DNA of 64,000 nt from Candidatus Acidiferrales bacterium (GCA_030038535.1 JASHSV010000239.1:1543-65542), one strand, 5' to 3'; counted from the stretch's first letter, positions 4,664-64,000 are shown. Numbers and translations are program-made. The notes: generated by a model from the sequence alone, not told the origin.

Positions 4664-4679
4664 TGGCACAAACGTCGCT
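4664..4679 (+). promoter_or_regulatory. candidate sigma-54 (-24/-12) promoter upstream of the kinase-STAS-mlaEF operon
   Basis: TGGCAC-AAACG-TCGCT has correct GG-N10-GC spacing. The -24 box is perfect and the -12 box has one mismatch (TCGC vs TTGC). It lies about 60 nt upstream of the ATG at 4741. Confidence 0.4.
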
Positions 4680-4740
4680 TTTGGGGAATTGCGCGCCCTG
4701 CCGTCGGGGCGCGCGGGCTCCCGGAGCGTGACTCGTTCTG

Positions 4741-5166: not shown

Positions 5167-5169
5167 TCG

Positions 5170-5505: not shown

Positions 5506-5535
5506 GACGGAATCCGGCGCGCGGACAGGGAACAA

Positions 5536-7145: not shown

Positions 7146-7280
7146 CCCGCCGCAGTTCCCCTGCGTTTTCCTTTCCGGGACACCCCTGCTCGCCACTCTC
7201 AAGTCGTGCTCGATCCGGCCGATATCACAGAAGGAACGGCTGGGTGTCCCTGCTGAGGCGAGTCCACCCGGCGGCAAACT

Positions 7281-9164: not shown

Positions 9165-9612
9165 CGTCGATATTCTGCTCGTGGAAGACAGTCCGGAGGA
9201 TGCGGAGCTGACGCTGCACAGCCTGCGGCGAAACAATCTGGCCAACCGCATCCACTGGGCGCGGGACGGAGAAGAGGGCCTGGACTTTTTGTTCTGCCGC
9301 GGTCCCTATTCGAACCGCTCCTTTCAGAATCCCCCCAAAGTGGTTCTCCTAGACTTGAAGCTGCCCAAAGTGGACGGGCTCGAGGTCTTGCGGCAGATGA
9401 AGGAAGACCCGCGGACAAGACCCATTCCGGTAGTCGTGCTCACATCCTCGCGCGAGGAGGCGGACGTCGTGCGCGGCTACCGCAACGGCGCCAACAGTTA
9501 CGTGCAGAAGCCGGTGGATTTCGACCAGTTCCGCGAAGCTGTTCGCCAGCTCGGCCTCTACTGGATGGTCACCAACGAAGCGCCGCCGGAAACCACATAT
9601 TCGCGCGGGTAG
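9151..9612 (+). CDS. single-domain response regulator (receiver only)
   Basis: GGAGG sits upstream of the ATG at 9151, and the gene overlaps the HK stop by 14 nt. It has receiver motifs [28 protein letters not shown] and YVQKP. Confidence 0.85.
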
Positions 9613-9617
9613 AACCG

Positions 9618-12341: not shown

Positions 12342-12371
12342 GCAACCTCCGCGGGTGAATTTCAGGGGCCG

Positions 12372-12380
12372 TGGTATACT
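12372..12380 (+). promoter_or_regulatory. possible extended -10 promoter element for mlaD
   Basis: TGgTATACT (TG-N-TATACT) lies 58 nt upstream of the mlaD ATG. No good -35 box is present. Confidence 0.3.
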
Positions 12381-12437
12381 CCCGCATCTTGGCGGCGGCA
12401 GGGAGCGAAGGAGCGCCGCCAGAGGCCGGGCGCGACT

Positions 12438-13409
12438 ATGGATGCGAAGAAGGAGCAGGCGTTTGTTGGCGTCTTTGTGGTCATCGCGACAGCCCTGCTG
12501 ATTGCCACGATTTTTGCCATCGGCGGCGCGTTCGGACGCGCCGGGCTGAACTACCTGGTTTATTTCAAGAATGCGGGCGGGCTCGAACCGGGCTCGATTG
12601 TGCGTTACGCGGGGATCCGTGTGGGCCGCGTGGACAAAGTCCGGATCGATCCCAAAGACCCGTCGCGCGTCATCATGGAGATCGGACTGGAGCCCGGAAT
12701 CCCCGTGAAGACCGACAGCCTGGCCAAGGTCTCCAGCCTGTCTGCGCTCGGCGAAAACTTTCTGGAGATTCTGCCCGGCAAGCCGGATTCGCCACTCGCC
12801 AAGTCGGGTTCGGTGCTGCCGTCAAAGGAATTCTTCGGCATCAACGACGTGGCAGATATCCTCAACGACCTTGGGCCCAAGGCCGAGGATTTGGTGAGCA
12901 ACCTGAACGACCGGGTCCAAGAGCTGAAGGTGACCATCGATCGGGTGAACGATCTGATTAACGACCAGAACCGCGCCCACGTCTCTGCCTCGCTGGACAA
13001 CCTCAACGGCATGCTTGCCGAGAACCGGCCGCATATCAAGAGCGCGCTCGGCAACGTGGACCAGATGTCCTCCAAGCTCGGCCCCACGGTGGACCAATTC
13101 AAGCAGACCGCCAAGCAGGCCGACGACACGCTCAAGAAGATCGACGACCTGCTGGGTGAGAACCGCAAGGATCTGCACGAATCCATCGCGCAATTGCACA
13201 AGGCGCTCAACGACGCCACCACGCTGGTGGACCAACTCAACCACACGCTCAACACCAACGGTGAGAGCATCGACGAGACGCTCGACAACATACGCCTGGC
13301 CACTGAAAACCTGCGCGAATTTACCGACACGATCCGCACGCGGCCCTACACCCTCATCCGCACCGCGGAGCCGCCGGAACACAAGCCGGGGGAGGGTTCC
13401 AAACCGTGA
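12438..13409 (+). CDS. mlaD: MlaD/MCE-family substrate-binding protein
   Basis: The N-terminal TM anchor is followed by an MCE domain (YLVYFKNAGGLEPGSIVRYAGIRVGRVDKV). A long helical C-terminal region follows. Confidence 0.85.
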   Translation: MDAKKEQAFVGVFVVIATALLIATIFAIGGAFGRAGLNYLVYFKNAGGLEPGSIVRYAGIRVGRVDKVRIDPKDPSRVIMEIGLEPGIPVKTDSLAKVSSLSALGENFLEILPGKPDSPLAKSGSVLPSKEFFGINDVADILNDLGPKAEDLVSNLNDRVQELKVTIDRVNDLINDQNRAHVSASLDNLNGMLAENRPHIKSALGNVDQMSSKLGPTVDQFKQTAKQADDTLKKIDDLLGENRKDLHESIAQLHKALNDATTLVDQLNHTLNTNGESIDETLDNIRLATENLREFTDTIRTRPYTLIRTAEPPEHKPGEGSKP

Positions 13410-13422
13410 GAGAGGTCCTGGC

Positions 13423-14049
13423 ATGAGCCTTCGTATATGCGCCGGAGCGGCCGCCCTGGCCGCGGCAATCGTTCTGCTGCTGGCGGGGTGCGGCGCGGCG
13501 CGGCCCATCAAGTTTTATTCGCTCGATCCGCCGGAGGTCAGCGCAGCGCCGCAGCGCACCGACGTGACGCTGTTGATCGCCCACTTCCATGCCCCGACGC
13601 TCTACCGCGACACGCGCATCGCGTACCGTACCGGCGCGAACGAAATGGGGCTGTACGATGAGCACCGCTGGGTGGAAGCGCCGGCGCTGATGGTGGAGGA
13701 AATGGTGCTGCAATACCTGCGTCGCAGCGGCGGCTACAAGAGCGTTCAGAACATCTCCTCCAGCGCGCAGGGGGACTATATCGTGCAGGGTCGCATCGAG
13801 CGGTTCGAACAGGTCGAAGGAAAGCCGCTCTCGGCCCGGGTCTGGCTGCGGCTGAGCCTCTACGACCCCAAGGCCGGCGCTACCGTCTGGGCCGGCAGCT
13901 ATGAGCGCGATGAACCCGCCTCCGGAGACGACTTTTCCTCGATTGTCGCTGCGCTCGACAAGAATCTGCAGCAGGGCGTGATCCAGCTTGCCAGCGAAAT
14001 CAATCAGTACGCCGTGGCGCACCCACGTCCGGCCGAAGCGGGCAAGTAG
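13423..14049 (+). CDS. ABC-type transport auxiliary lipoprotein (DUF330 / PqiC-YmbA-like)
   Basis: The inner ATG at 13423 gives MSLRICAGAAALAAAIVLLLAGC, which contains a lipobox. The following FYSL...L.I......Y.D.RI.YR pattern is typical of the MCE-associated lipoprotein. Confidence 0.75.
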   Translation: MSLRICAGAAALAAAIVLLLAGCGAARPIKFYSLDPPEVSAAPQRTDVTLLIAHFHAPTLYRDTRIAYRTGANEMGLYDEHRWVEAPALMVEEMVLQYLRRSGGYKSVQNISSSAQGDYIVQGRIERFEQVEGKPLSARVWLRLSLYDPKAGATVWAGSYERDEPASGDDFSSIVAALDKNLQQGVIQLASEINQYAVAHPRPAEAGK

Positions 14050-14088
14050 CCCAAGATTCCGTCCTGCTGAACCGCAAAAGGAGCCTTC

Positions 14089-15372
14089 TCAACATTCCAG
14101 GGCGGAGCGGCGCAGTCGGAAGCCGTTGAGGTTTCCGAGCACGGCCACTGCAATCCTTTCGGGGCGAAGCAGTTCCCGCGCCAGTTCCTGGATTTCCTCG
14201 CGAGTCACGCGTTCGATCGCTCGCGTGATTTCCTCCGTCGAGCAGTAGCGGCCGAAGTAGATTTCCTGCCGGGCCAGATTGGACATGCGCGCCGTCGATG
14301 ACTCGAGCGAAAGGACGAGCGACCCGATCAGGTGGTCCTTCGCCCGCCGCAACTCCTCTTCGGTAATGCGCTCGGCCTTCATATTCCGGAATTCTTCGAT
14401 CACGCAGCGGATCACCCGGTCCGTCTTCTCGCGAGCCGTGCCCGCATAGACGCACAACATTCCCACGTCCCGATACGGATTCAGATCGCTGAAGATGGTA
14501 TACGCCAGTCCCTGCTGCTCACGGATGTTCTGGAACAATCGCGACGACATGCCCCCGCCGAGCACGTAATTGAGCACCGAAAGCTGGTAACGGCGCTCGC
14601 TGGCCGCCGCATAAGAGGGCACACCGAGGCAGAGTTGCACCTGCTCCAGTCCCTTCTTGGTGCGCGTGGTGAGGTGCGCGTGCGGATTCGGCGGCGCCTG
14701 CGCTTTCCGGTGGCTGCGCGCGCGTTCCCCCGGCGAGGCGCCGAATTCGCCGATCACCAGCTCGCGCATTTCCGTGTGCTTCAAGTTGCCGGCCGCGGTG
14801 ATCAGCAGGTTGTCGGGCGCGAACAGTTCGCGGTAGCTCGCCAGCGCCTTCCGGCTCGAGAACCGGCTCACGGACTGGCGCGTGCCGAGGATGGGACGGC
14901 CCAGGGGGTGTTTCCCCCAGAAACGGTGCGAGAAAATCTCGTGGATCAAATATTCCGGATTGTCCTGCTCCATCTTGAGCTCTTCGAGGATCACGTTCTT
15001 TTCCTTCGCCACGTCCTCGTCCGCGCATCGCGAGCGCAGCACCATGTCCGCCATGATCCCGAAGGCAATGGGCACGTGCTCGTCGAGCACCTTCGTATTC
15101 AGGCAGATCATTTCCTTCGCCGTGAATGCGTCCAGGTAGCCACCGATGCGCTCGATTTCCCGCGCAATGTCTTCCGCCGTGCGGCGCTCGGTGCCCTTGA
15201 AGAGCATGTGCTCGATGAAATGGGCGATTCCGGAGAGTTCGTCAGACTCGCTCCGCGAACCCGACCGCGCCCAGATTCCCATGGCCACGGAACGCACCTG
15301 GGGCATGGCCTCGGTGATGAGCATCAGGCCGTTGGGCAGCACTTCGCGTTCGATTTGGCGCTCCCTCTCCAT
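14089..15372 (-). CDS. M16-family zinc peptidase (insulinase/pitrilysin-like)
   Basis: It contains the HxxEH motif (AHFIEHMLFKGT). I place the start at the ATG at 15372 (MERERQIEREVLPNGL). The track ORF start at 15423 is a GTG with an Arg-rich leader. Confidence 0.85.
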   Translation of the reverse strand: MERERQIEREVLPNGLMLITEAMPQVRSVAMGIWARSGSRSESDELSGIAHFIEHMLFKGTERRTAEDIAREIERIGGYLDAFTAKEMICLNTKVLDEHVPIAFGIMADMVLRSRCADEDVAKEKNVILEELKMEQDNPEYLIHEIFSHRFWGKHPLGRPILGTRQSVSRFSSRKALASYRELFAPDNLLITAAGNLKHTEMRELVIGEFGASPGERARSHRKAQAPPNPHAHLTTRTKKGLEQVQLCLGVPSYAAASERRYQLSVLNYVLGGGMSSRLFQNIREQQGLAYTIFSDLNPYRDVGMLCVYAGTAREKTDRVIRCVIEEFRNMKAERITEEELRRAKDHLIGSLVLSLESSTARMSNLARQEIYFGRYCSTEEITRAIERVTREEIQELARELLRPERIAVAVLGNLNGFRLRRSALEC

Positions 15373-15548
15373 GGCTGTTTCGATGCGTTTCCTGCGCCCG
15401 CTACGAGCTTCGCGCGGGCGCACCCCAAGTGCGGTTGGTTCGCGAAAGAGAACCGTCCCGGCTGGAAGACCTATTCTATCCCAGGTGTAGCGGACAAGGC
15501 AGCGCGCCCGAACCGCATCCGGAGCGGCCGCCCGTGATTGCGCCCTCG

Positions 15549-16127
15549 TCAGGAGCTCTTCGCCGTCGACAGAACCTTGCCGTACTCACTCGTGTAGTAC
15601 AGCGGCACGTCCATGTAGGTCCCTTTGTCCGCGGAATACACCTCGCAGCTATCGTAAGGCAGCGAATAGATGTGAATGCTCACCGCGCGCGCCTTGTATT
15701 CCGGCAGGTTGAGCACCTGATGCACCGGCTCGACGGGATTCACCGCCGCGGGGTGCAGCGCGTCCATGATGCAGGTATCGGTGGCCATCATCCGGCAGGT
15801 CTGCTTCGCGCTGTCAGTCACCTCCACGCGGAAGTTCTGCACCTTCAGTTTGCCGATCGGCACCGACATCCAGCAGTTCTGCCCACGGTGATTGTGAATG
15901 CGGCTGATCTGGCCGATCTCCCAGCAGATGGCCATCACCTCAAATAGCGGACACTTGTAAATCAGGTTGCGCGTGTAGCAGCACGGGTCCCATTGCAAAA
16001 AAGGCTCCAGCGTGCCCGCTTCGATGCCGTAATGCCGGCAGAATTCCAGCACGTTTTCCACCGTGAATCTCCGCTCTTCGATCCCGCTTAGCTCGCGGAC
16101 CCATTCGCCGACCGGAATTTGCTCCAT
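15549..16127 (-). CDS. cysteine dioxygenase-type cupin protein
   Basis: GGAGG sits upstream of the ATG at 16127. The cupin metal motif RIHNHRGQNCWMSV and the overall length (192 aa) fit the CDO type I family. Confidence 0.7.
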   Translation of the reverse strand: MEQIPVGEWVRELSGIEERRFTVENVLEFCRHYGIEAGTLEPFLQWDPCCYTRNLIYKCPLFEVMAICWEIGQISRIHNHRGQNCWMSVPIGKLKVQNFRVEVTDSAKQTCRMMATDTCIMDALHPAAVNPVEPVHQVLNLPEYKARAVSIHIYSLPYDSCEVYSADKGTYMDVPLYYTSEYGKVLSTAKSS

Positions 16128-16234
16128 CACTACCTCCCACGCTCGCCCTGGATGCACTCAGTATAACGGAAAGCCGCGGCCCCGGCTGCGGATTCGGCGC
16201 GTGATACCATGAAACTGAAAACAGGCGAAGGCGC

Positions 16235-17305
16235 ATGCCCGCGGAACTCCTGGGAAAATCGCTCAACGAATTGCGCGAGTGGATGGCCTCGCTCGGCGAG
16301 CCTGCCTACCGCGGCGCGCAGGTGTATCACGCCATCTACGCCGAGCGCCGGCGGGAATTCGCGGCCATGACGAATCTGCCCGCGGTGCTCCGCGAGCGGC
16401 TGGGACGCGAGGCGGCGATCACGCTGCCCATGATCGCGCGGAAATATCACTCCGCGGACGGCTCTGTACGGTATCTCCTGCCGCTCGGAATCGGGTCCGC
16501 GGCCGACGCGGCGCGCCCGGCAGCCGTAGAAGCGGTGTTCATGCCCTCCGATGCGCGGCAAACCGTCTGCATCTCGACGCAGGCCGGATGCGCCGTGGAT
16601 TGCAAATTTTGCCTCACTGCCACGCTCGGGCTCGTGCGCAACCTTACCGCGGGCGAGATTCTGGGCCAGGTGCTCGTCGCGCTCGACGACAACCGGGAGC
16701 GTCTGGCGCCGCGCACCAACGTGGTGCTGATGGGCCAGGGCGAGCCACTCCTGAATTTCGAGCCGACCATGGCCGCCGTGCGCATCCTGATCGATCCCAA
16801 CGCCCTCGCGCTTTCTCCACGCCACGTAACGCTCTCCACCAGCGGGATTGTGCCGGGCATCGACCGCCTAGCGCAGGAAAAAGTGCGGCCGAAGCTGGCT
16901 GTCTCGATCAATGCCTCCAGCGACGCCCAGCGCGACGTTATCATGCCCATCAACCGCAAGTATCCGCTCGCCGCCCTGCTCGATGCCTGTCGCCGCTATC
17001 CCCTGCGTCCCTGGGAACGCCTCACTTTCGAATATGTGCTGCTGGGGGGCCTGAACGATTCGGCGAACGACGCGCGGCGCGTCGTGCGCCTCCTGGCCGG
17101 CCTTCGCTGCAAGGTCAACCTAATTCCGTGGAATCCCGGTGAGCTGCCCTATCGCCCGCCCGCTCCGACCGCCGTCGAGGAATTTCGCCGCATTCTCGCG
17201 GATAAAGATGTGCCCGTGTTCGTCCGCTACTCCCGCGGCCAGGATATTTTCGCGGCCTGCGGCCAGCTCGCCGTCATCGAAACGGGCATCGAAGCCCGCG
17301 CGTGA
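16235..17305 (+). CDS. rlmN: 23S rRNA/tRNA (adenine-C2)-methyltransferase, radical SAM
   Basis: It has the radical-SAM motif CAVDCKFC, the typical N-terminus YRGAQVYHAIY, and GEPLLN. Confidence 0.9.
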   Translation: MPAELLGKSLNELREWMASLGEPAYRGAQVYHAIYAERRREFAAMTNLPAVLRERLGREAAITLPMIARKYHSADGSVRYLLPLGIGSAADAARPAAVEAVFMPSDARQTVCISTQAGCAVDCKFCLTATLGLVRNLTAGEILGQVLVALDDNRERLAPRTNVVLMGQGEPLLNFEPTMAAVRILIDPNALALSPRHVTLSTSGIVPGIDRLAQEKVRPKLAVSINASSDAQRDVIMPINRKYPLAALLDACRRYPLRPWERLTFEYVLLGGLNDSANDARRVVRLLAGLRCKVNLIPWNPGELPYRPPAPTAVEEFRRILADKDVPVFVRYSRGQDIFAACGQLAVIETGIEARA

Positions 17306-23558: not shown

Positions 23559-23900
23559 TCAGGTGGCCGCAGGCTCGGCGCGGATGATGTCGTACTTCTC
23601 GATCATCGCGGCGACCCCAATGCGCTCTTCCTCGTCGCCCGGCTTTCTCTCCACACGCACGACCTTACCCTGCGCATGAATGAAGACTTCGGTCCCGCGT
23701 GTAATTTCGGCGGGCAATGTGAGCATGAAATCGAGAGTCGAGCCGGGCTCGAGTTGCTGATCCACCAGAAAATAGACGCCGCGCGTGGAAATGTCGCGGG
23801 TCTTCCCGTTTCGAGAATCGGCCGCTTTGCGTTCGGCTACCGCTCTCACCACCACGGGCAGGTTGAGCTCATACCTACGTGCTATACGGCGGTCCGTCAT
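23559..23900 (-). CDS. PilZ-domain protein (canonical c-di-GMP binding motifs)
   Basis: 113 aa with RRIARR (RxxxR) near the N-terminus and DISTRG (DxSxxG). Confidence 0.8.
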   Translation of the reverse strand: MTDRRIARRYELNLPVVVRAVAERKAADSRNGKTRDISTRGVYFLVDQQLEPGSTLDFMLTLPAEITRGTEVFIHAQGKVVRVERKPGDEEERIGVAAMIEKYDIIRAEPAAT

Positions 23901-23956
23901 GTCCCTTCCCCCTCAGAACCACGGATGCGAGCGACGGCCGGGCTAACTCGAGTGAT

Positions 23957-23972
23957 TGCAATCACAGTGCCA
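23957..23972 (-). promoter_or_regulatory. sigma-54 promoter (-24/-12) for the PilZ gene
   Basis: The minus strand reads TGGCAC-TGTGA-TTGCA, a perfect match to the consensus TGGCAC-N5-TTGCW. The -12 GC lies about 58 nt upstream of the ATG at 23900, and GAGGGGGAAGGG serves as the RBS. Confidence 0.7.
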
Positions 23973-23999
23973 GTTTCAGTCGCGACCTGCGGCTGACGC

Positions 24000-24023
24000 C
24001 GGCAAGGCTACTACAACTTGCCG
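24000..24023. promoter_or_regulatory. inverted repeat, possible activator binding site (UAS)
   Basis: CGGCAAG-N10-CTTGCCG is a perfect 7-bp inverted repeat. It lies about 30-50 bp upstream of the -24 box on the minus strand. Confidence 0.3.
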
Positions 24024-24230
24024 TAGGAAGTGCTCCAAAATCATGCGCTCCCAACCAACGGAAAACGAAGAGGTTACATCGCGGGTCAGGTAAGGATGGC
24101 CGTGGAGCCGACCCCGCTTTTCCACACACCGCCCCCGGACGTGTGGCCTGGCCGCTCAGCCTCCTTCCCGTCCCCGTGCTGCCCTCTGCTATCTCAATTG
24201 CCGGGAATATGCAATGGTTTTCACGCCCCG

Positions 24231-25679
24231 CTACGGCTCCCAGGTCGCGGGCGTAGCCACCCCTGAACGAGGCGACCGCCCCGTGTCCAGCTTGAACTGG
24301 CGCATCTTGTACAGCAGCGCCTTATAACTGATGCCCAGCAGGCGCGCTGCCTCTTTGCGGCTCCAGTTCGTTTTATCCAGCGCGTCGGCGATCGCTTCCA
24401 TCTCCGCCTCGGCCTTTAGGCTGCGCACCAACGCTTTCAAGCCCTGCTCCTTTGCGGGCGCGGGCTGCTGTCCGGGTGCGCTGTGTTGCCGGCCGGCCGC
24501 GATCTCTAGAAGCTCGCGGAAGCTGGCCTCGTTATCTTCCAGAATCACGTAGCGTTTCACGAAATTTTCCAGCTCGCGCAAATTCCCCGGCCAGGAATAG
24601 CGCATGGCCGCCTCCATCAGGTGCGAAGAGGGAGCGGGCGGCTGCTTCTGGAACTTTTCACTGTATTTATCCAGAAAATGCCGGAACAGCAGCGGAATCT
24701 CCGGCGTACGCTCCCGAAGCGGAGGCACGTGGATGGAGAATACGTTCAGCCGGTAATAGAGGTCCTCGCGGAAGCGTCCGGACTGGATGGCCTCGCGCAC
24801 GTTCACGTTGGTGGCCGCCAGTACGCGGACGTCCACATGCACCAGGGCGCGCCCGCCTAGCCGGGAATATTGCTGGTCCTGCAAAACGTGCAGCAACTTG
24901 GCCTGGAGTTGAGGGCTCATCTCCGCGATCTCGTCCAGAAAGATTGTGCCTTTGCTGGCCAGTTCGAATTTGCCGGGCTTGGAGCGGAGCGCCCCGGTGA
25001 AGGCGCCCTGCTCGTAGCCGAACAGTTCCGATTCGAGCAGCTCACTCGGCAGCGCCGCGCAGTTCACTTTGAGGAAGGGCTGTGCCGCGCGCGCGGATCG
25101 CAGATGCACCATCCGCGCCACTACTTCCTTGCCCACTCCGCTCTCCCCGTAGATGAATATGGGCACGTCCACCGGCGCGATTTGAAGCACCTGCTGGCGA
25201 ATCTTCACCATCTGCGGGCTGGCTGCCAGGAAGGTCAGATCCTCGGTCAGATTCTCCACGTATTCCCGCAACGCCGTATTCTCGGCGCGGAGTTCCCGCT
25301 TTTTGTGGCACTTCAGAATGGCGGCATCGAGCTCCGATTTTTCAAATGGCTTGGTCAGGTAGTCCTGGGCCCCCATGCGGATCGCCTCCACCACCGTAGC
25401 CACCTCGTTCGAACAGGAAAGCATCACCACGTTCAGGTTGGGGTCCATCTGCATGAGCTGCTTCAGCGTCTCCAGGCCGTCCATTTCCGGCATGAGCACA
25501 TCCAGAATGATCAGGTCCGGCCGCGCCCCGCGGCCAATCAGCTCCAGCGCGCTTTTCCCGGAGCCGACGGCGTCCACGTCGTGGCCTTCGACTTCAAGCA
25601 GCGTCTGCAGGTATTTCCGGATGCTTGGCTCGTCGTCCACCACCAGAATCCGGTCTCTCGTTTCGGTTGCTGTGTTCAT
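24231..25679 (-). CDS. sigma-54-dependent response regulator (NtrC family: REC - AAA+ - Fis-type HTH)
   Basis: The receiver has ILVVDDEPSI...IILDVLMPEMDG. The AAA+ domain has GESGVGKE, an intact GAFTGA, FLDEI and WPGNLRELEN. The C-terminal HTH is AARLLGISYKALLYKM. The ATG at 25679 has a GAGGATGAGGGA RBS, and an alternative GTG lies at 25697. Confidence 0.9.
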   Translation of the reverse strand: MNTATETRDRILVVDDEPSIRKYLQTLLEVEGHDVDAVGSGKSALELIGRGARPDLIILDVLMPEMDGLETLKQLMQMDPNLNVVMLSCSNEVATVVEAIRMGAQDYLTKPFEKSELDAAILKCHKKRELRAENTALREYVENLTEDLTFLAASPQMVKIRQQVLQIAPVDVPIFIYGESGVGKEVVARMVHLRSARAAQPFLKVNCAALPSELLESELFGYEQGAFTGALRSKPGKFELASKGTIFLDEIAEMSPQLQAKLLHVLQDQQYSRLGGRALVHVDVRVLAATNVNVREAIQSGRFREDLYYRLNVFSIHVPPLRERTPEIPLLFRHFLDKYSEKFQKQPPAPSSHLMEAAMRYSWPGNLRELENFVKRYVILEDNEASFRELLEIAAGRQHSAPGQQPAPAKEQGLKALVRSLKAEAEMEAIADALDKTNWSRKEAARLLGISYKALLYKMRQFKLDTGRSPRSGVATPATWEP

Positions 25680-25698
25680 TCCCTCATCCTCGCTCACG

Positions 25699-26919
25699 CT
25701 AGTCCAGATTCGTGGGCAAAATCAATTTCACCGTGCATCCCCGCCCTACTTCGCTCTCCACCCAGATCTTTCCTCGATGGGCTTGCACCAAACGCTTGCT
25801 GATCGCCAGTCCCAGCCCCATCCCGGAAGACGACCGGTCCACACGCACGAAATCTTCGAAGATCTCCTGATGATGCTCCGCGGCGATTCCCGGCCCGGAA
25901 TCCAAAACGGAGATCAGCACGCTGTTTACGGAGTTCTCCGGCCCACGACGGCGCTCCACGTGCGGCGCCACGCTGGCCGCGCGCCGTTCCCAGAAATGCG
26001 GCTCGGCCGCGAGGGCCACGTGCCCTCCCGGAGGCGTATGTTTCAGCGCGTTATCCAGAAGATTCGCCACAGTCTGCTGCACTTTCTGGTAGTCGAAACG
26101 GAAAGGCCTCAGCCGGCTCGATAGCTGCGTCTCCAGCCTCACCTGACGGCGCGCAAACGCATCGCTCCACAGCGTGGCCAGCTCGGTGAGGCACTCGCTC
26201 GCGTCGTTCTCCAGCAGATGCAACACCAGCTTGCCACTCTCCAGGGCGGAGTAATTCAGGAACATGGAAACCAGCCGCACCAGCCGGTCGCAACTCTCTT
26301 TGGATTCGCTGAGTATGTCCCTCTGTTTCTCACCCAGTTTTCCCAGCGAACCGGAGAGCAGCAAATCGTAGTAGCCCTTCATCACCGCCAAGGGCGTCTT
26401 CAACTCGTGCGCCGCAGAGGCCAGAAAGACCGTCTTTTGCCGATTCACTTCCTGAAGCCGAAGGTAGGCGGCGAGCAGATTGCGGTACGTTACTTCGCGT
26501 TCCTGCAACAGATCGCCGAGTGTCTGCTGCAGTGCTGCGTCCTCGCTCGCTGCGTTTTCAGGCGACGCTTCCAGCGTCACGGCCACCCAGCCGGCTTCAG
26601 CGATCCAGTGAATCCGCGCGTGTGCCGGCTTTCCTTTGGCGTCTGCCAACGGCAGATTCACCTCGCGCTCGCCACTCCGCATCTGTTCCAGCACAGCCCC
26701 CGGAGCCACGCGGAAAACCTCGGTGAAAAGGTTTGTTCCCTTCCGCGCTTTCAGGCCGCGCGCTTTGAGGAATCGTTCCACAGCAGCGTTCTTGGCGCAC
26801 ACCCTGCCGGATTCGTCTGCCAGGAGCAGCGGCTGTTCGACACAGTTCAAAATCGCGCAAACGATTGACAACGGCAGCGACATTCGTACTGGCTGGTCGA
26901 GTGTGGTCGTGCGTTCCAT
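25699..26919 (-). CDS. cytoplasmic sensor histidine kinase (PAS-like N-terminus, HisKA, HATPase)
   Basis: The H-box is AAHELKTPLAVMKGY and the ATPase boxes are DSGPGI and GMGLGLAI. No clear TM segments are visible. It lies immediately upstream of the NtrC-type regulator. Confidence 0.85.
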   Translation of the reverse strand: MERTTTLDQPVRMSLPLSIVCAILNCVEQPLLLADESGRVCAKNAAVERFLKARGLKARKGTNLFTEVFRVAPGAVLEQMRSGEREVNLPLADAKGKPAHARIHWIAEAGWVAVTLEASPENAASEDAALQQTLGDLLQEREVTYRNLLAAYLRLQEVNRQKTVFLASAAHELKTPLAVMKGYYDLLLSGSLGKLGEKQRDILSESKESCDRLVRLVSMFLNYSALESGKLVLHLLENDASECLTELATLWSDAFARRQVRLETQLSSRLRPFRFDYQKVQQTVANLLDNALKHTPPGGHVALAAEPHFWERRAASVAPHVERRRGPENSVNSVLISVLDSGPGIAAEHHQEIFEDFVRVDRSSSGMGLGLAISKRLVQAHRGKIWVESEVGRGCTVKLILPTNLD

Positions 26920-57941: not shown

Positions 57942-58301
57942 CTAATCTTCGAAGGGTCTCCAGTCGGCGGGCGGAAAATCGATTCTCCAGAACTTCGGCG
58001 ACGGCTTGAGGAATTCGACTCCGACGGCGCGCACATTTCCGGTCATGGGCTTGGCATACACGACGCGGCAGGCCTGCTGCTCGGAGGTAACGGCGTTGGT
58101 TATCACGATCTCCTGGTTTGGGCGCACATCCTGCGAGAGATGAATCAGAGCCCCATGCGCGTTCACAGCCAGGGTTTTGGTCTTCTCTCGGAAGGCGTGG
58201 CCCTCAGAGTCGATGCCCTGGACAAAGATACCGACCTGCAGGAAGACGCGTTCGCTGCGCCGGCGTTCGGCTCCGGATGGTTTGGCGACGGGCTCTGTCA
58301 T
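57942..58301 (-). CDS. PilZ-like protein (paralog of 27209..27557), second motif degenerate
   Basis: 119 aa. RRRSER is present, but the DxSxxG position reads VNAHGAL. The C-terminus reads VRAVGVEFLKPS. Confidence 0.7.
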   Translation of the reverse strand: MTEPVAKPSGAERRRSERVFLQVGIFVQGIDSEGHAFREKTKTLAVNAHGALIHLSQDVRPNQEIVITNAVTSEQQACRVVYAKPMTGNVRAVGVEFLKPSPKFWRIDFPPADWRPFED

Positions 58302-58656: not shown

Positions 58657-58672
58657 TGGTAAATGAATTGCT
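58657..58672 (+). promoter_or_regulatory. candidate sigma-54 promoter upstream of the GcvH-like gene
   Basis: TGGTAA-ATGAA-TTGCT has correct GG-N10-GC spacing. The -12 box is perfect and the -24 box keeps the GG. It lies about 65 nt upstream of the ATG at 58739. Confidence 0.4.
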
Positions 58673-58738
58673 CTATGTCAAAGCGAAGACTTAGGAAGCG
58701 CGGTTCAAGAGCACAGAGCGAAGCGTAGGAGGTGGGTT

Positions 58739-59407
58739 ATGACCGTGATTCTGATTCTCGTGACGTTTGCGATTTTCCTCACCATCGACTATCTGCGTCA
58801 GGAGAAGCGCGTGGAAGCGCCCGCCAATGCACAACTGGCCAAGACTCCGGCGCCCCGCATGCTTCCAAAATTCATTTCCGGATTCGAGTTGCCCGAAAAT
58901 CGCCGCTACCACCCGGGACACACTTGGGCGGTTGAGGAAACACCGAATCTGGTGCGGGTGGGTCTCGATGATTTTGCCGCCCGCTTGCTGGGCAAAATTG
59001 ACCACATCGAGCTGCCAAAGCGCGGCCAGTGGATCCGGCAAGGACAGCGCTTGGCGACCGTATTCCGCGATGGCATCAAAGCTGAGTTGCTGTCGCCCGT
59101 CGAAGGAGAAGTGACGCAAATCAACGAAGCGGCTCTTGGCGACACTTCCCTGCCCGGCCGCGATCCGTATGGCCAGGGCTGGCTCGTTTCGGTTTACTCC
59201 CCGGATGCCAGGACGAGCTTCCGCAACCTGCTGGGCGGAAGTCTGGCTCGTTCCTGGATGGCAGAGGCGGCCACGCGGCTTTTCGGAAAGATGCCGGCGC
59301 TGGCAGGCGCCGTCGCGCAGGATGGCGGCCTCGCGGTGCACGATCTTACTGCCCAACTCCCCGACCAGAAGTGGGGCGACCTTACGCAAGAATTCTTCCT
59401 CTCCTGA
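58739..59407 (+). CDS. membrane-anchored glycine-cleavage-H-like (lipoyl/biotinyl-fold) protein
   Basis: TAGGAGG serves as RBS. The N-terminal TM is MTVILILVTFAIFLTIDYL. A GcvH-like domain follows (YHPGHTWAVEE...VRVGLDDFAARLLG...LSPVEGEV...DPYGQGWLV), then an extra ~70-aa C-terminal region. Confidence 0.75.
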   Translation: MTVILILVTFAIFLTIDYLRQEKRVEAPANAQLAKTPAPRMLPKFISGFELPENRRYHPGHTWAVEETPNLVRVGLDDFAARLLGKIDHIELPKRGQWIRQGQRLATVFRDGIKAELLSPVEGEVTQINEAALGDTSLPGRDPYGQGWLVSVYSPDARTSFRNLLGGSLARSWMAEAATRLFGKMPALAGAVAQDGGLAVHDLTAQLPDQKWGDLTQEFFLS

Positions 59408-59431
59408 CCTCCCGTCTCGAGAGGCAGGAAT

Positions 59432-59473
59432 CCGGCCGGCCGCCTCAAGAGTGCGCCGGCCGGGTGCTTTTTT
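59432..59473 (+). terminator. rho-independent terminator (or attenuator) after the GcvH-like gene
   Basis: A 9-bp GC stem (CCGGCCGGC / GCCGGCCGG at 59432-59440 and 59455-59463) has a 14-nt loop. It is followed by GTGC and TTTTTT at 59468-59473. Confidence 0.7.
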
Positions 59474-59798
59474 GTCGCGCCGCTTCGTCAAGCTCTTGTG
59501 GTGAGCGTGCACGGCATCACGGCGAGCGGTGACGAGAGTCACCACAATCCTCCCCCACAACGACTAACCTTTTCTCGACGCGAGGCGGTTCTCGTGCGTG
59601 TTGAAATAGTCCTCGGGTTCAGTCCAGAAGGCCTCCGGAACGAGCCTCACCCGCTGAGTTGTGCATCATCCACACCCGCAATCTGCCGCCGTATCCCGCG
59701 ACAAAGTCCTCGCGGGGCCGCCGATTCCCTGCAACTGATGATTTCTTTTACTCGCCTGTGTGCGGCGCGGACGGGCCGGAGAGCCGTTGGGGGATTTT

Positions 59799-60548
59799 AT
59801 GAGCAAAGGAATCTTGTATGACGCCACGCTTTGCATCGACTGCAAATTATGCGAAAGGGCGTGCGCAGAAAAGCACGGCCTGCCCTATAACGAGGCCATT
59901 GCCGCGGAAGAAAAGCAATCCGCCCACAAACTCACCGTGGTGATGGACAAGGGCGACAAGTACATGCGGCGGCTGTGCATGAATTGCCAGGATCCGACGT
60001 GCGCCTCCGTCTGCCCGGTGGCCGCCCTTCGCAAGACCGCCGAGGGGCCGGTGACCTACGATGCCTCGCGGTGCATCGGCTGCCGGTACTGCATGCTGGC
60101 CTGCCCATTTTCCGTGCCGAAGTATCAGTGGAACACGGCGCTGCCTCTGGTGCAGAAGTGCGACATGTGCGCGGACCGCGTGGCCCAGGGCTTGCCCACC
60201 GCGTGCGCCGCGGCGTGCCCGACGGGCGCGACCAAGTTTGGCGATCGGGACGCCCTGATCGCGGAAGCCCAAGACCGCATCGCCAAGAATCCAGAGCAGT
60301 ACGTGCACCACATCTATGGCCTTACCGAAGTTGGCGGCACGTCGGTGCTGCTGCTCTCAAGCGTTCCCTTCGAGGAATTCGGTTATCCCGTCCACGTGGA
60401 CAATCAACCTCTGCCCATGCTGACCTGGCACGTCCTTTCCGAGCTTCCCCAGGTGGTGACTTTCGGAGCGGCACTGCTGGGAGGCATCTGGTGGATCACC
60501 AGCCGGCGCCAGGCGGTGGCGGCTGCGGAAGCCAAGTCCGGGGACTGA
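59799..60548 (+). CDS. HybA/PsrB/NrfC-like 4Fe-4S multicluster protein with C-terminal TM anchor and no signal peptide
   Basis: The Cys motifs are CIDCKLCERAC, CMNCQDPTCASVC, CIGCRYCMLAC and CDMC...CAAAC. The first cluster motif starts at residue 12. The C-terminal helix is VVTFGAALLGGIWWITS. Confidence 0.85.
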   Translation: MSKGILYDATLCIDCKLCERACAEKHGLPYNEAIAAEEKQSAHKLTVVMDKGDKYMRRLCMNCQDPTCASVCPVAALRKTAEGPVTYDASRCIGCRYCMLACPFSVPKYQWNTALPLVQKCDMCADRVAQGLPTACAAACPTGATKFGDRDALIAEAQDRIAKNPEQYVHHIYGLTEVGGTSVLLLSSVPFEEFGYPVHVDNQPLPMLTWHVLSELPQVVTFGAALLGGIWWITSRRQAVAAAEAKSGD

Positions 60549-60559
60549 GGAGCGAAGAT

Positions 60560-61732
60560 ATGGCCACATTTAGATGGACGTTCTGGAAGGTGGTTCTTGC
60601 CTTCGTGCTGCTCGCGGGGGCCGTTGCGACCGTGCTGCGCTTCTCGGAAGGCCTGGGAGCCACAACGAACCTCAGCGACGCATTCCCCTGGGGCCTGTGG
60701 ATCGGCTTCGACGTGATGTGCGGAGTAATGCTGGCCGCCGGCGGATTTACGCTCACCGCCACTGTGTACATCTTCAACCTGAAAAAGTTCAAGCCGATTG
60801 TGCGGCCAACCGTGCTGACCGCCTTTTTGGGCTACTTGCTGGTGGTGATCGCTCTGCTCTTCGACCTCGGCCGGGGCTACCGCATCTGGCATCCGCTGGT
60901 GATGTGGAACCCGCGGTCGGTAATGTTCGAGGTGGCCTGGTGCGTCACGCTTTACACCATGGTCCTGGCGCTCGAATTCGCTCCCATAATTTTCGAGCGT
61001 CTGAGGTTGGAAAAGCTCCTGCGCATCCAGCGGGCCATTTCAATCCCGCTGGTCATCGCGGGGGTGATGCTCTCTACTCTCCACCAGTCGTCGCTGGGCA
61101 GCCTGTATCTGATTGTGCCCGGCAAGCTGCATCCCTTTTGGTACACGCCACTGCTGCCGCTGCTGTTCTTTGTTTCGGCGATTTGCGTCGGACTGGCCAT
61201 GACCATCTTTGAATCGAGCATGAGCGCACGCCACTTCGGCAAGCAGCTCGAGATGCCGTTGCTGATTCGGCTGGGCCGCGCGCTTTTGGTTGGATTGATC
61301 GTTTATTCCGTGCTGCGGTTCCAGGACGTATTCGATCGCGGGGCGCTCAAGCTGATCACTCGCGGTGGTTGGGAATCCGGGCTGTTTCTGCTGGAGATTG
61401 CAATGGGGCTGGTTGCGCCCATTGTCCTGCTGATCTTTCCCAAAGTACGCGAGTCTTCGGGAGGGCTCTATATCTCCTCGGTGCTGGTAGTTCTCGGATT
61501 CGTGACCAACCGCATGAATGTGGCGATTACAGGGATGGAAGCATCCGCGGGGGTGCACTACTTCCCGAAATGGACGGAACTCGCCGTCACCGCGAGCATC
61601 ATTGGTGCCGGCTTTGGTATTTTTGCCGCGGCCGTGAAGTACCTGCCGATTTTTGTCGCGGAAGAAGCGCATCCGGCAAGCGCCGAAAGGCGGGAACCGG
61701 AATTGGCGGTCTTGTCCCATGCCCGGCTCTGA
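60560..61732 (+). CDS. NrfD/PsrC/HybB-like polytopic quinone-interacting membrane subunit
   Basis: GAGGAG serves as RBS. The protein is 390 aa with about 10 TM helices and an NrfD-family pattern (PWGLWIGFDVMCGVMLAAGGF...). Confidence 0.85.
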   Translation: MATFRWTFWKVVLAFVLLAGAVATVLRFSEGLGATTNLSDAFPWGLWIGFDVMCGVMLAAGGFTLTATVYIFNLKKFKPIVRPTVLTAFLGYLLVVIALLFDLGRGYRIWHPLVMWNPRSVMFEVAWCVTLYTMVLALEFAPIIFERLRLEKLLRIQRAISIPLVIAGVMLSTLHQSSLGSLYLIVPGKLHPFWYTPLLPLLFFVSAICVGLAMTIFESSMSARHFGKQLEMPLLIRLGRALLVGLIVYSVLRFQDVFDRGALKLITRGGWESGLFLLEIAMGLVAPIVLLIFPKVRESSGGLYISSVLVVLGFVTNRMNVAITGMEASAGVHYFPKWTELAVTASIIGAGFGIFAAAVKYLPIFVAEEAHPASAERREPELAVLSHARL

Positions 61733-63353
61733 CCGAGCTTCGCCCCTGGGAAAAGGCTCGGGAGGCGTTTGGGCGAGCGTCAGCACCCGCCTGGTAATTC
61801 TGCTGGTCGTTTCCATGACCTGCGTCTTCGGTCTCCTCGGTTACCTGAACATCCGCTTGCACCGGCAGCATCTGGAGCAAACCACGCTGGCGAGTGCGGA
61901 GCGGCTAAGCGATGTGATCAAGCGGAACGCCACTTACTCCATGCTTCATAACGAGCGCGACGGCCTCCATCAGATGATTTCCGACATGGCCAACGAGCGC
62001 GGCATCGTGCGCGTGCGCATTATCAATGCGGAGGGCCGCATCAGCTTCAGCTCTGATCCAAGCGAAGTCAGCCAGCTCGCCGGCGGGCGCGGGATCGCTC
62101 CACTCGGCACCGGAAGTACATCCGCCCCTCTGGACCTTCGCGAGCGCTTCCGGACCTACCAACTCGCTTCGGGCGAGCGCGCGCTTGGCGTGATGAATCC
62201 CATCGAGAACTCGGCGCAGTGCGCATCGGCGCAATGTCACGCGCATCCGCCGGACCAGCGAGTGCTCGGCGTCCTGGAGACCAATATCTCTCTCAAGGCC
62301 GCCGATGCCAGCCTGGCTGAAAACACCCGTCAGGTGCTGCTCTCCACGCTTCTGGCAGTTGTGGCCATCGCGGCGCTGAGCGCGGTGTTCGTGTGGCGCG
62401 TCGTCCACGACCCGCTGGCGGCCCTCCAGGCGGGAACGGAACGGCTCGGGTCCGGCGAGTTGGGTTTCCAGGTGGAAGTGGGCCAGGCCGGGGAGCTGGC
62501 CGACGTCGCCCAAGCGTTCAACACCATGAGCCGGCAGCTCCGGGAGGCGCACGAAGAAATCAACGCCTGGGCGCGCACGCTGGAGGCCCGCGTGGAGCAG
62601 AAAACCAGGGAATTAAGCAGCGCGCAGGAAGAAATGCTCCGTGTGGAACGCATGGCCTCCATCGGCAAACTCGCCGCCGTCGTGGCGCATGAAATCAATA
62701 ATCCCCTGGCTGGAATCCTCACGTATGCGAAGTTGCTGAAGAAGCGGTTTGCTGGAAAGGACGACGAGCTCTACAGCACGCTGGATCTGATGGAATCGGA
62801 AAGCCGGAGATGCGGCGAGATAGTGAAGAATCTGATGACCTTTGCGCGAAAGACCTCGATGAACTACGAGGAGTCGGACCTGAACGACGTGATTGCACGT
62901 TGCGTGCGTCTCGTGCAGCACAAGCTGGAGCTGGCCAATATCGGCTTGCGGCGCGAGCTGTTGCCGGACCTGCCGAAGGTCTGGTGCGACGCGGGCCAGG
63001 TCGAACAGGTGGTGCTCGCCTTGGTGGTGAACGCAATCGACGCAATGCCCAACGGGGGCACCCTGACGCTGCGGACGCGGCGAAAGGGTGACGCGCAGGT
63101 ACAGATCGAAGTCCGCGACGACGGCATCGGAATGCCACCCGAGGTGCTGGCCAACCTTTTCGAGCCCTTTTTCACCACCAAGGAACGGGGCCGCGGCCTT
63201 GGGCTCGGCCTGGCCACCAGCCGCAGCATTATCGAGCGCCATGAAGGAATCATTGAAGCATCGTCGGCGCCGGGAAGTGGAACCGTGCTGACGGTCACTC
63301 TGCCGATCCGCGCGCGCTCGCTGGCGGAAGCGCGTCCGGAACGAGCGGCGTGA
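61719..63353 (+). CDS. sensor histidine kinase (TM - periplasmic domain with CX4CH - TM - HAMP - HisKA - HATPase), ZraS/AtoS-like
   Basis: The ATG at 61719 overlaps the upstream gene's stop by 14 nt. The H-box is VAHEINNPLAGI and the ATPase boxes are DDGIGM and GLGLGLA. Confidence 0.85.
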   Translation: MPGSDRASPLGKGSGGVWASVSTRLVILLVVSMTCVFGLLGYLNIRLHRQHLEQTTLASAERLSDVIKRNATYSMLHNERDGLHQMISDMANERGIVRVRIINAEGRISFSSDPSEVSQLAGGRGIAPLGTGSTSAPLDLRERFRTYQLASGERALGVMNPIENSAQCASAQCHAHPPDQRVLGVLETNISLKAADASLAENTRQVLLSTLLAVVAIAALSAVFVWRVVHDPLAALQAGTERLGSGELGFQVEVGQAGELADVAQAFNTMSRQLREAHEEINAWARTLEARVEQKTRELSSAQEEMLRVERMASIGKLAAVVAHEINNPLAGILTYAKLLKKRFAGKDDELYSTLDLMESESRRCGEIVKNLMTFARKTSMNYEESDLNDVIARCVRLVQHKLELANIGLRRELLPDLPKVWCDAGQVEQVVLALVVNAIDAMPNGGTLTLRTRRKGDAQVQIEVRDDGIGMPPEVLANLFEPFFTTKERGRGLGLGLATSRSIIERHEGIIEASSAPGSGTVLTVTLPIRARSLAEARPERAA

Positions 63354-63368
63354 GAAAGAGGAACGGCC

Positions 63369-64000
63369 GTGCCAAACAAAGCGAATTTGTTGATTGTGGA
63401 CGACGAGCTGATCGTCCGGGATTCGCTCTCCAAATGGTTTCATGAGGAAGGCTACGATGTGGCCGTGGCCGAGGGCGCTCAGGACGCGCTGCAGAAAATG
63501 GCCCAGCGGCAGTTCGATCTCGCCTTGGTGGACATCAAAATGCCGGGGACCGATGGAGTGGAATTGCAGCGCCGTATGCATGAAATCGATCCGGATCTTC
63601 TGGTGATCATGATGACCGGCTACGCGTCAGTGGAAACGGCGGTTGCTGCGCTCAAAAACGGCGCCTACGACTACGTCTCCAAGCCCTTTGATCCGGAGGA
63701 AATGGCGCATACCGTCCGCAATGCCCTCTCCCACCGGCAGGCCCAGCGCGAAAATACTCAGCTCCGCCAGACCCTGGCGGCCGTGGGCGGCCCAAGAGAG
63801 CTGACCGGACAGAGCCCGGAGATGATGCGGGTTTTGGAAGCCGTCCAGACCGTGGCGCCCACCGAAGCGACCGTGCTCATTGCCGGAGAGAGCGGCACCG
63901 GCAAGGAGCTGTGCGCGCGCGCTATTCACGCGGCCAGCAACAGAAGGTTCAATCCCATGGTGGTAATCCATTGCGGCGCGCTGACGGAGACGCTGCTGGA
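63369..64000 (+). CDS. sigma-54-dependent response regulator (REC - AAA+), 5' part only; it runs off the window
   Basis: The GTG at 63369 is preceded by AAGAGGA. My translation gives LLIVDDELIVRD...LALVDIKMPGTDG...YVSKPF...LIAGESGTGKE. The gene is absent from the ORF track because no stop falls in the window. Confidence 0.85.
   Translation, partial: MPNKANLLIVDDELIVRDSLSKWFHEEGYDVAVAEGAQDALQKMAQRQFDLALVDIKMPGTDGVELQRRMHEIDPDLLVIMMTGYASVETAVAALKNGAYDYVSKPFDPEEMAHTVRNALSHRQAQRENTQLRQTLAAVGGPRELTGQSPEMMRVLEAVQTVAPTEATVLIAGESGTGKELCARAIHAASNRRFNPMVVIHCGALTETLL

Follow-up and report, generated by a model that had tools for sequence, protein, structure and literature searches.

The 3′-terminal part of a 64,000-nucleotide (nt) stretch of DNA from a Candidatus Acidiferrales bacterium (JASHSV010000239.1, 1543–65542; "the window" below always means this whole stretch) contains a copy of an undescribed gene cassette that is both widespread and conserved in Acidobacteriota (Terriglobia). 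It is composed of two transcription units: a monocistronic, sigma-54-dependent gene for a protein with the fold of GcvH (hereafter the H-like protein), and an operon for an iron-sulfur (Fe-S) protein, an NrfD-type membrane subunit, a sensor kinase, an NtrC-type activator and an archaemetzincin-like peptidase. An earlier note on this DNA had interpreted these genes as a cytoplasm-facing, quinone-linked electron module with a lipoyl-type carrier protein. The conserved redox cassette and its sigma-54 control withstood the analysis, the lipoyl carrier did not, and the cytoplasm-facing orientation became doubtful. The best reading in our opinion, in which belief and doubt are about evenly balanced, is an Hmc/Cbc4-like quinone module that faces the periplasm and has a new, cytoplasmic, non-lipoylated H-fold subunit. 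The features on which it is based are as follows.

58657–58672, + strand: predicted sigma-54 (−24/−12) promoter of the H-like gene, TGGTAAATGAATTGCT, an element conserved in relatives
58739–59407, + strand: GcvH-fold H-like protein, 222 amino acids (aa), Pfam GCV_H E = 4.5e-18
59432–59473, + strand: terminator-like GC hairpin with T-run, 3′ of the H-like gene (terminator scan, folding, conservation)
59507–59543, no strand assigned: tandem inverted repeats, candidate NtrC-type regulator sites (recurrence across loci)
59799–60548, + strand: HybA/HmcB-type tail-anchored 4x[4Fe-4S] protein, 249 aa, Fer4_11, HmcB and HybA profiles
60560–61732, + strand: HybB/HmcC-type NrfD quinone-interacting membrane subunit, Pfam NrfD, 10 transmembrane (TM) helices
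61719–63353, + strand: sensor histidine kinase with 2 TM helices, HAMP, HisKA and HATPase domains and a periplasmic domain
62220–62246, + strand: CASAQCHAH in the kinase, a C-x4-CH motif and likely c-type haem attachment site (translation confirmed; conserved)
63369–64000, + strand, cut by the window end: NtrC-family sigma-54 response regulator with REC and Sigma54_activat domains

Composition and conservation of the cassette

Five co-oriented open reading frames (ORFs) run from 58739 through the window end, and profile searches bore out both the genes and their family assignments as the earlier note had given them. The H-like protein scored 65.8 bits with Pfam GCV_H (cut-off 22.2) and missed the equivalogs TIGR00527 (63.7 vs 115.85 bits) and NF002270 (72.5 vs 117 bits). 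The Fe-S protein matched HmcB (E = 7e-73) and HybA (E = 5e-59), from profile positions 36 and 40 only, with scores below both equivalog cut-offs (245 vs 420 and 200 vs 263). The same was registered for the NrfD subunit with HmcC (E = 3e-95, 320 vs 550) and HybB (E = 2e-86, 291 vs 450), while Pfam NrfD was matched with 91.5 bits at a cut-off of 25.8. Judged by these scores, which miss every named equivalog cut-off, the window proteins are relatives of the named proteins and not members of those families. The Fe-S gene lies directly upstream of the NrfD gene with a spacer of 11 nt, and the kinase gene, noticed before as overlapping the NrfD stop, does so by 14 nt. The regulator has the REC and sigma-54 AAA+ domains typical of the NtrC family, and it is accompanied by a cognate kinase and by a conserved −24/−12 promoter at the H-like gene.

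The nearest relative of the locus belongs to a 'Candidatus Acidiferrales' metagenome-assembled genome (MAG; Acidobacteriota, Terriglobia), with 92–96% protein identity. Conservation was estimated in 160 related loci, 80 from species-representative genomes and 80 from metagenomes, the latter seeded with distant H-like proteins; loci were scored by tblastn and by hidden Markov models built from family alignments. Species-representative loci are nearly all Acidobacteriota MAGs, a few being registered under other phylum labels. Eighty loci were considered well-flanked, having at least 3.5 kb on either side of a family-type H-like gene. Beside this gene a two-component system was found in 73 of them and the Fe-S and NrfD genes in 69; all of these together with a Peptidase_M54 gene were present in 64, and 6 loci had none of them. 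Synteny is thus conserved in 64–69 of the 80 well-flanked loci, with flanking genes that differ between loci. Together with the lack of a catalytic subunit nearby (see below), it supports the earlier view of an uncharacterised, self-contained membrane redox cassette with dedicated sigma-54 control.

The commonest arrangement is colinear, with a gap 3′ of the H-like gene that varies from roughly 290 to more than 800 nt. Divergent (L060, L063, L067, L086, L088) and convergent (L017, L081) arrangements were registered as well. In L069, L075, L120 and L136 the H-like gene, kinase, regulator and M54 are kept without Fe-S and NrfD genes, and L089, whose H-like protein has only 40% identity, shows the order kinase–regulator–H-like–Fe-S–NrfD with 35-nt spacing. 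The tightest partner of the H-like gene is the two-component system. Since the association persists across such varying arrangements, the H-like gene is functionally tied to the cassette, yet forms a separate transcription unit. One could also regard it as an unrelated neighbour, because it has its own promoter, its own terminator and a 391-nt gap to the operon. The earlier note had allowed for this possibility, which the survey contradicts: the gene adjoins the cassette whether the arrangement is colinear, divergent or convergent, it still does so in other phyla where identity has dropped to about 30%, and the frequencies given above (73 and 69 of 80) speak against a mere neighbour as well. 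The probability of a chance neighbourhood is practically negligible.

Cassettes of 57–81% identity were also found on contigs with non-acidobacterial MAG labels (L011, L012, L023, L036, L044, L050, L051, L058, L065), which include Patescibacteria, Binatia, Verrucomicrobiia, Dongiaceae, Limnocylindrales, Eremiobacteraceae, Eisenbacteria, Methylomirabilota and Bacillota. Mis-binning is a more likely source of these labels than lateral transfer.

The sixth conserved gene, corresponding to a place just past the window end, encodes an archaemetzincin-like Peptidase_M54. In relatives with a 76–84% identical H-like protein the regulator, with a full length of 450 aa, also contains HTH_8 and is followed by this translationally coupled gene (L002, 15939–16490; L004, 11399–11944; L006, 16046–16594). 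The M54 gene overlaps the regulator stop, and its product has the motif HExxHxxGxxHC; it accompanies the regulator even in the distant cassettes L098, L155 and L180. Genes past M54 are unrelated and differ from locus to locus. No molybdopterin, hydrogenase or cytochrome gene was found downstream of the cassette in relatives, and no hydrogenase (HybOC) or HmcA/E/F genes adjoin NrfD either in the window or in relatives. Neither the 64-kb window nor the up-to-7-kb flanks of the 160 related loci contained a catalytic gene or one for a partner with a signal for twin-arginine translocation (Tat). Within this range the earlier statement that the catalytic subunit is missing holds, and the search of the flanks for a Tat-signal catalytic subunit, which would have pointed to a conventional Psr/Nrf-type complex, came out negative.

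Transcription units and regulatory signals

The element TGGTAAATGAATTGC at position 58657 has two mismatches to TGGCAC-N5-TTGC. Matches of this quality occurred 69 times in the window vs 78 expected, i.e. at chance level in this window alone. Of 81 distinct upstream windows from relatives, 76 have [TC]GG-N9-TGC at a distance of 20–120 nt before the H-like start, compared with 9.5% of control windows (random 100-nt segments of the same loci), and nearly everywhere, distant L090 included, the sigma-54 element lies 38–94 nt before the H-like start codon. Because an equivalent element is conserved in relatives, the sigma-54-like promoter proposed earlier is taken as real, in spite of the chance-level match in the window.

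The H-like gene is not the leading one in an operon of five. Its promoter, the putative terminator and the non-coding gap of 391 nt before the Fe-S gene make it a transcription unit of its own. The folding energy of the hairpin at 59432–59473 (z = −1.44) is weak if taken alone, and the terminator is predicted from its T-run and from conservation: of 63 distinct colinear relatives, 39 have a hairpin with T-run, different in sequence, at the corresponding position. A search of the gap for a small conserved ORF, for instance one encoding a signal-bearing peptide, gave none, as the clusters obtained consisted only of the Fe-S N-terminus and its antisense translation. No match to Rfam was found in the gap or the upstream region at E ≤ 1.

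Two inverted repeats with centres 22 nt apart lie in the same gap. The first (59507–59520) is the imperfect GTGCA-N4-ATCAC, and the second (59528–59543) is the perfect GGTGAC-GAGA-GTCACC. In most loci the sequence GTGAC-N4-GTCAC is found again 200–345 nt before the Fe-S start, and alignment A1 shows it to be invariant. These repeats look like candidate binding sites of an NtrC-type regulator. In the subclade L065, L068, L071, L073, L079 and L087 the GTGAC-N4-GTCAC repeats are absent, and a sigma-54 promoter, TGGCAC-N5-TTGCC, is situated 24–38 nt upstream of the Fe-S start. The wiring of the Fe-S operon therefore differs between clades.

The H-like protein and the membrane module

An AlphaFold2 model of the H-like protein has a pLDDT of 90.9. 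Its residues ~50–165 superpose on solved GcvH structures (Foldseek) with template-modelling scores of 0.83–0.90 and root-mean-square deviations of ~1.6–1.8 Å, for instance 0.89 and 1.7 Å with GcvH 1onl. According to the model, the protein has the true barrel-sandwich fold of GcvH. The C-terminal ~60 residues, which contain the family motifs QDGG and EFFL, are helical and have no structural match. The family is large: 91 clusters at 50% identity were collected with E < 1e-30, and full-length relatives extend to ~30% identity.

In an ungapped alignment the lipoyl-lysine of Thermus thermophilus GcvH falls on G112. Among 162 family members, 133 have Gly here and 5 have Lys. The offset of two residues noticed earlier for the nearest lysine is correct by this alignment, and this lysine, K114, is kept in 76 of 162 (47%). 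With Gly at the lipoyl-lysine position and the nearby Lys poorly conserved, the H-like protein is not a general lipoyl carrier, and this part of the earlier interpretation falls. For annotators it is a warning, since H-like proteins of 220 aa carry the annotation 'glycine cleavage system protein H', which cannot be right.

A TM helix begins at residue 2 in 87 of 87 close relatives, with on average 0.02 Lys and Arg residues before it and 3.5 in the 15 residues after it. Due to this charge bias the protein is predicted to be N-out, C-in. Natural fusions agree with a cytoplasmic placement of the H-like domain, which is thus predicted from both charge and domain context. In P0181 a signal peptide and a multihaem cytochrome c precede a helix and the H-like domain, and P0167 combines REC with H-like. 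P0226 (427 aa) consists of 2Fe-2S, 2x[4Fe-4S] and H-like domains, P0252 (1391 aa) of three H-like domains, a flavin adenine dinucleotide (FAD) oxidase and HdrD-like CCG domains, and P0463 (316 aa) of a molybdopterin dinucleotide-binding domain with H-like. The lysine-less fusions P0252, P0463 and P0226 suggest that the H-like domain may be a general docking module of cytoplasmic redox proteins.

The NrfD subunit has ten helices by hydropathy profile. On the side that is cytoplasmic if the N-terminus is inside (N-in), Lys and Arg number 14.0 vs 9.4 on the other side, the N-in side being higher in 70 of 72 sequences. A further indication comes from L090, whose homologue (~65% identity, estimated by eye) has an 11th helix after helix 10 and then, at its C-terminus, a trihaem cytochrome c7 domain. 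Since this domain must be periplasmic, the ten-helix core should have both termini inside (N-in/C-in). The topology prediction, which the earlier note had proposed as a check, thus points to the canonical HybB orientation. The most conserved loops of NrfD are then the periplasmic ones. Identity with Escherichia coli HybB is 34%, and HybB residues R89, Y99, E148 and H184 correspond to R82, Y92, E139 and H175, invariant in 72 of 72 relatives. Replacement of these HybB residues impairs hydrogen oxidation (PMC8076601). NrfD proteins with ten helices have both termini on the negative (N) side of the membrane, and their quinone site and Fe-S subunit on the positive (P) side, as was reported for ActC and modelled for HybB (PMC8076601). 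A comparison of the NrfD sequence with the Protein Data Bank (PDB) gave no matches.

The Fe-S protein has 16 Cys in CxxCxxCxxxC-type motifs, and across 72 relatives the conservation of each is 95% or higher. Its alignment with E. coli HybA (33% identity) extends from HybA residue 37 to the C-terminal helix, after which comes a conserved GGIWWIT-RR segment, so that a C-terminal anchor is predicted. The stretch of HybA that is missing, its first 36 residues, is exactly the Tat signal. The earlier description of a four-cluster ferredoxin without signal extends to the family: 92 of 99 complete relatives have the signal-less start MSKxILYDAT.C with in-frame stops 1–40 codons upstream. A signal peptide located further upstream or in another frame was considered and ruled out by these stops and by a good Shine-Dalgarno sequence before the ATG. 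The classical RRxFLK signal was found in seven metagenome loci and in a Gemmatimonadota genome locus (L180), all with the same H-like genes. Rooted on HybA, a neighbour-joining tree groups the signal-less proteins in a single clade whose sister is the Tat-bearing one. One loss of the Tat signal is the simplest history.

The earlier model, in which a cytoplasm-facing Fe-S/NrfD pair passes electrons between the quinone pool and a lipoyl-type H-like carrier, can be weighed against these data. It agrees with the absence of a signal peptide across the clade, with the cytoplasmic placement of the H-like domain and with its fusions to cytoplasmic redox domains elsewhere; moreover, SoeABC was proposed as an NrfD complex facing the N side (PMC8076601). 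The absence of the lipoyl-lysine and the N-in/C-in topology of NrfD, given by the L090 fusion and the charge bias, speak against it. Besides, the conserved loops and quinone-side residues are periplasmic, and a cytoplasmic cluster could not reach a periplasmic-side quinone site, because NrfD has no cofactors of its own. Finally, sister cassettes with the same H-like genes export the Fe-S protein by Tat and add periplasmic cytochromes. All this makes the cytoplasm-facing orientation doubtful, and the model as a whole distinctly improbable. The data favour a module facing the periplasm, leaving the export route of its signal-less Fe-S protein as a puzzle.

Signal-less subunits of PsrB, DmsB and QrcC type are normally co-exported. 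The puzzle would therefore be solved if the cassette were just the membrane part of a familiar enzyme type, a conventional Psr/Hyb-type complex, with its Fe-S protein carried through Tat by a partner, catalytic or molybdopterin-like, whose gene lies at another place in the genome. The case of a C-tail Fe-S protein that has no signal and is encoded beside a Tat-signal FeFe hydrogenase has been described (10.1101/2023.11.02.564894). Such a partner is quite unlikely here: its gene is absent from the 64-kb window and from the differing flanks (up to 7 kb) of 160 loci, and it is the own regulator and the H-like gene that stay with the cassette in every arrangement. Whatever the route, loss of the Tat signal across a large conserved clade offers a clean test case for the membrane placement of tail-anchored Fe-S proteins.

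Redox partners, sister cassettes and known systems

The periplasmic domain of the kinase contains the motif C-S-x-A-x-C-H-A-H-P, conserved in 67 of 69 kinases, 27 of which also have CxxCH. Pfam Mcp40H-20_sensor matches this region weakly (5e-6 in L090, 1e-3 here), and its only sequence match in PDB is 3B42 (E = 0.005), annotated as a putative methyl-accepting chemotaxis protein, whose CxxCH aligns with C-x4-CH. We take 3B42 to be the haem-c PAS-like sensor of a Geobacter chemoreceptor. Judging by these motifs, the kinase domain is likely to be a haem-c sensor of redox state or of a ligand.

The whole locus might also be a sensing device instead of a respiratory enzyme. Fe-S/NrfD would wire the quinone pool to the haem-type domain of the kinase, which is encoded on the same mRNA, the two-component system would read the redox state of this pool, and the H-like protein would be the sigma-54-induced output. 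The kinase start overlapping the NrfD stop is in line with it, as are C-x4-CH in 67 of 69 kinases, similar to the Geobacter haem-c sensor 3B42, the lack of any other encoded periplasmic redox partner in the clade, the conserved sigma-54 promoter found only at the H-like gene, and the loci L069, L075, L120 and L136, where the H-like gene is accompanied by the two-component system and M54 but not by Fe-S/NrfD. Nevertheless the kinase sensor of L089 has no Cys in spite of all three structural genes being present, the sister-clade module sits among respiratory multihaem cytochromes, and the invariant proton-channel residues suggest an energy-coupled enzyme. We consider this possibility unlikely.

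Sister loci of the Tat type usually have two or three H-like genes and add periplasmic cytochromes, tetrahaem in L155 and octahaem in L170; L180 has several multihaem proteins and a Rieske/cytochrome b pair. A periplasmic c-type cytochrome gene is absent from the window cassette and from the acidobacterial clade, and present in L090 (fused), L155, L170 and L180. H-like proteins fall into type A (as in the window), type B, with a TKGVEY motif before the helix, and a soluble Cys-rich type. The N-terminal helix of P0391 and other type-B proteins has a precomputed match to Pfam PF28260 'DVU_0533', so a newer Pfam release may already cover part of the H-like family. DVU_0533 is HmcD, the 5.8-kDa hydrophobic subunit of Hmc (PMC10920352). 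By analogy, this match, which was seen for a sister subtype, gives the best hint that H-like proteins may be subunits of the membrane complex.

The locus L180 (CP070716.1, Gemmatimonadota, 1–16696) has H-like genes of types A, B and C, a Tat-signal Fe-S gene, NrfD, kinase, regulator and M54 between a Rieske/cytochrome b pair and several large multihaem cytochromes, and looks like an extracellular or periplasmic electron-transfer island. In L098 (1–10299) the NrfD, H-like, REC-H-like and H-like genes are followed by methylene-tetrahydrofolate reductase (MTHFR), a NarI-like membrane protein, a small Fe-S protein, cytochrome c3 and a protein with the MTHFR C-terminal domain, with M54, regulator and kinase on the opposite strand. 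A link of such modules to one-carbon metabolism is possible.

A comparable module of three genes, C-tail Fe-S protein, HybB-like quinol oxidase and c-type cytochrome, was described by the Palmer laboratory (10.1101/2025.04.14.648717; 10.1101/2023.11.02.564894). As in this module and in Cbc4 (CbcS-CbcT-CbcU) of Geobacter sulfurreducens, the gene of a four-cluster tail-anchored Fe-S protein immediately precedes that of a cofactor-less HybB/NrfD-type subunit in the present cassette; one published example also has a sigma-54 regulator nearby, and the sister cassettes L155, L170 and L180 have the added multihaem cytochrome. Unlike them, the window cassette has neither a cytochrome c gene nor a Tat signal on the Fe-S protein, and it contains conserved GcvH-fold gene(s), a kinase/sigma-54 activator pair and M54. 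The Palmer-laboratory paper reports no conserved flanking genes and does not mention H-like proteins.

With Hmc of Desulfovibrio vulgaris the cassette shares HmcB and HmcC as the best NCBIfam matches of Fe-S and NrfD, and the HmcD family (PF28260) matches the N-terminal helix of type-B sister proteins. It differs in having no HmcA cytochrome, HmcE haem-b or HmcF HdrD-like subunit and in scores below the equivalog cut-offs; since these three counterparts are absent, the cassette provides no transmembrane electron route. HybA/HybB of E. coli hydrogenase-2 are similar in the identity given above (33% and 34%) and in all four residues R89, Y99, E148 and H184, but the HybA Tat signal has no counterpart, hydrogenase genes are absent and the equivalog cut-offs are missed here too. 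The H-like protein shares with GcvH and LbpA/GcvH-L the fold and the motifs HxW, PxxGxV..N and PYGxGW. In contrast to them it has no lipoyl-lysine, bears an N-terminal membrane helix and a C-terminal region of ~60 residues, and is encoded by a sigma-54-controlled gene neighbouring Fe-S/NrfD rather than gcvT/gcvP or sHdr. SoeABC, whose proposed orientation is cytoplasm-facing, also has a signal-less Fe-S subunit adjoining an NrfD-family one; however, SoeC has 8 helices and a proposed inverted topology, while the present NrfD has 10 and the canonical one, and no molybdopterin subunit accompanies it.

Gene content, synteny, promoter, fold, the missing lysine and signal and the predicted topologies are shown by the data above. 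For the Hmc/Cbc4-like, periplasm-facing module we infer from them that a complex is formed, which way its electrons flow, what the H-like domain does and what is sensed, as follows. The Fe-S protein and NrfD would form an NrfCD-type dimer in canonical orientation, with quinone site and Fe-S protein on the periplasmic face and proton uptake through the conserved HybB-type channel residues. This dimer may shuttle electrons between the quinone pool and a periplasmic partner, in the manner of Geobacter Cbc4 (CbcSTU), HybAB of E. coli and HmcBC of Desulfovibrio. For the sister cassettes this partner would be a multihaem cytochrome c, which either has an adjacent gene or forms a fusion with NrfD or the H-like protein; in the signal-less clade it may be unlinked, or else the co-translated kinase may provide it with its periplasmic domain of haem-c type. 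The H-like protein could serve as a non-redox subunit, placing its helix beside NrfD in the membrane by analogy with the HmcD-matching subtype, and its H-fold domain on the cytoplasmic face would dock, regulate, or recruit cytoplasmic partners. The kinase would sense the periplasmic redox state, and the activator would switch on the H-like gene via sigma-54.

Several observations weigh against this reading. In 92 of 99 relatives neither a Tat nor a Sec signal is found on the Fe-S protein, a Tat-signal partner for it is encoded neither in the cassette nor in the 64-kb window or the up-to-7-kb flanks of relatives, and we know of no folded Fe-S protein that crosses the membrane without Tat. H-like fusions to cytoplasmic Fe-S, FAD/HdrD-like and molybdopterin-binding domains would fit electron transfer in the cytoplasm, and the subunit role of the H-like protein is suggested by analogy, from gene neighbourhood, fusions and the Pfam match of the type-B sister proteins. 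In the distant relative L089 the sensor domain of the kinase is devoid of Cys. As for regulation, GTGAC-N4-GTCAC never occurs upstream of the H-like gene in colinear loci, where the putative enhancer repeats sit downstream, and no sigma-54 promoter is conserved before the Fe-S operon in this clade.

NrfD-type modules link the quinone pool to many anaerobic respiratory enzymes, and the way they conserve energy is an active question. The searchable literature contains nothing that joins GcvH with NrfD, HybA or HmcB; neither the gene combination nor the lysine-less H-fold subunit nor the clade-wide loss of the Tat signal was found there, the parts themselves being of known kinds. That lysine-less GcvH-fold proteins are unrecognised cytoplasmic subunits of NrfCD modules, anchored by an HmcD-like helix, and that a whole acidobacterial clade runs such a module with its Tat-less Fe-S protein, is proposed tentatively, with considerably more doubt than belief. 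If true, H-fold subunits may gate the quinone module or couple it to cytoplasmic partners under sigma-54 control, so that a cytoplasmic component would be added to complexes thought to act on the periplasmic side only. The subunit spans Acidobacteriota to Gemmatimonadota and Desulfobacterota-like metagenome contigs. The Tat-less clade would imply either that a folded Fe-S protein is placed periplasmically without its own or a linked signal, or that it is the first HybA/HybB-type module with Fe-S on the cytoplasmic side. Among Acidobacteriota of soil and peat the cassette is common, and of its 88 genome-derived loci nearly all come from MAGs; it may bear on the way these abundant bacteria handle redox changes.

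Two further observations concern the surroundings. Just upstream of the H-like promoter, at 57942–58301 on the − strand, there is a 119-aa PilZ-domain gene (Pfam E = 1e-4). It is retained only in the closest relatives, L002 and L003, and probably lies, therefore, outside the cassette. The only zero-mismatch sigma-54 consensus of the window, TGGCACTGTGATTGC, was found at 23958–23972 (− strand), 58 nt upstream of a 113-aa PilZ-like ORF (23559–23900, − strand; PilZ by reading of the sequence) while another sigma-54 response regulator and one more, unannotated ORF (24231–26919, − strand) lie directly upstream of the consensus. The region 23559–26919 looks like a second sigma-54 circuit with a putative small target of PilZ type.

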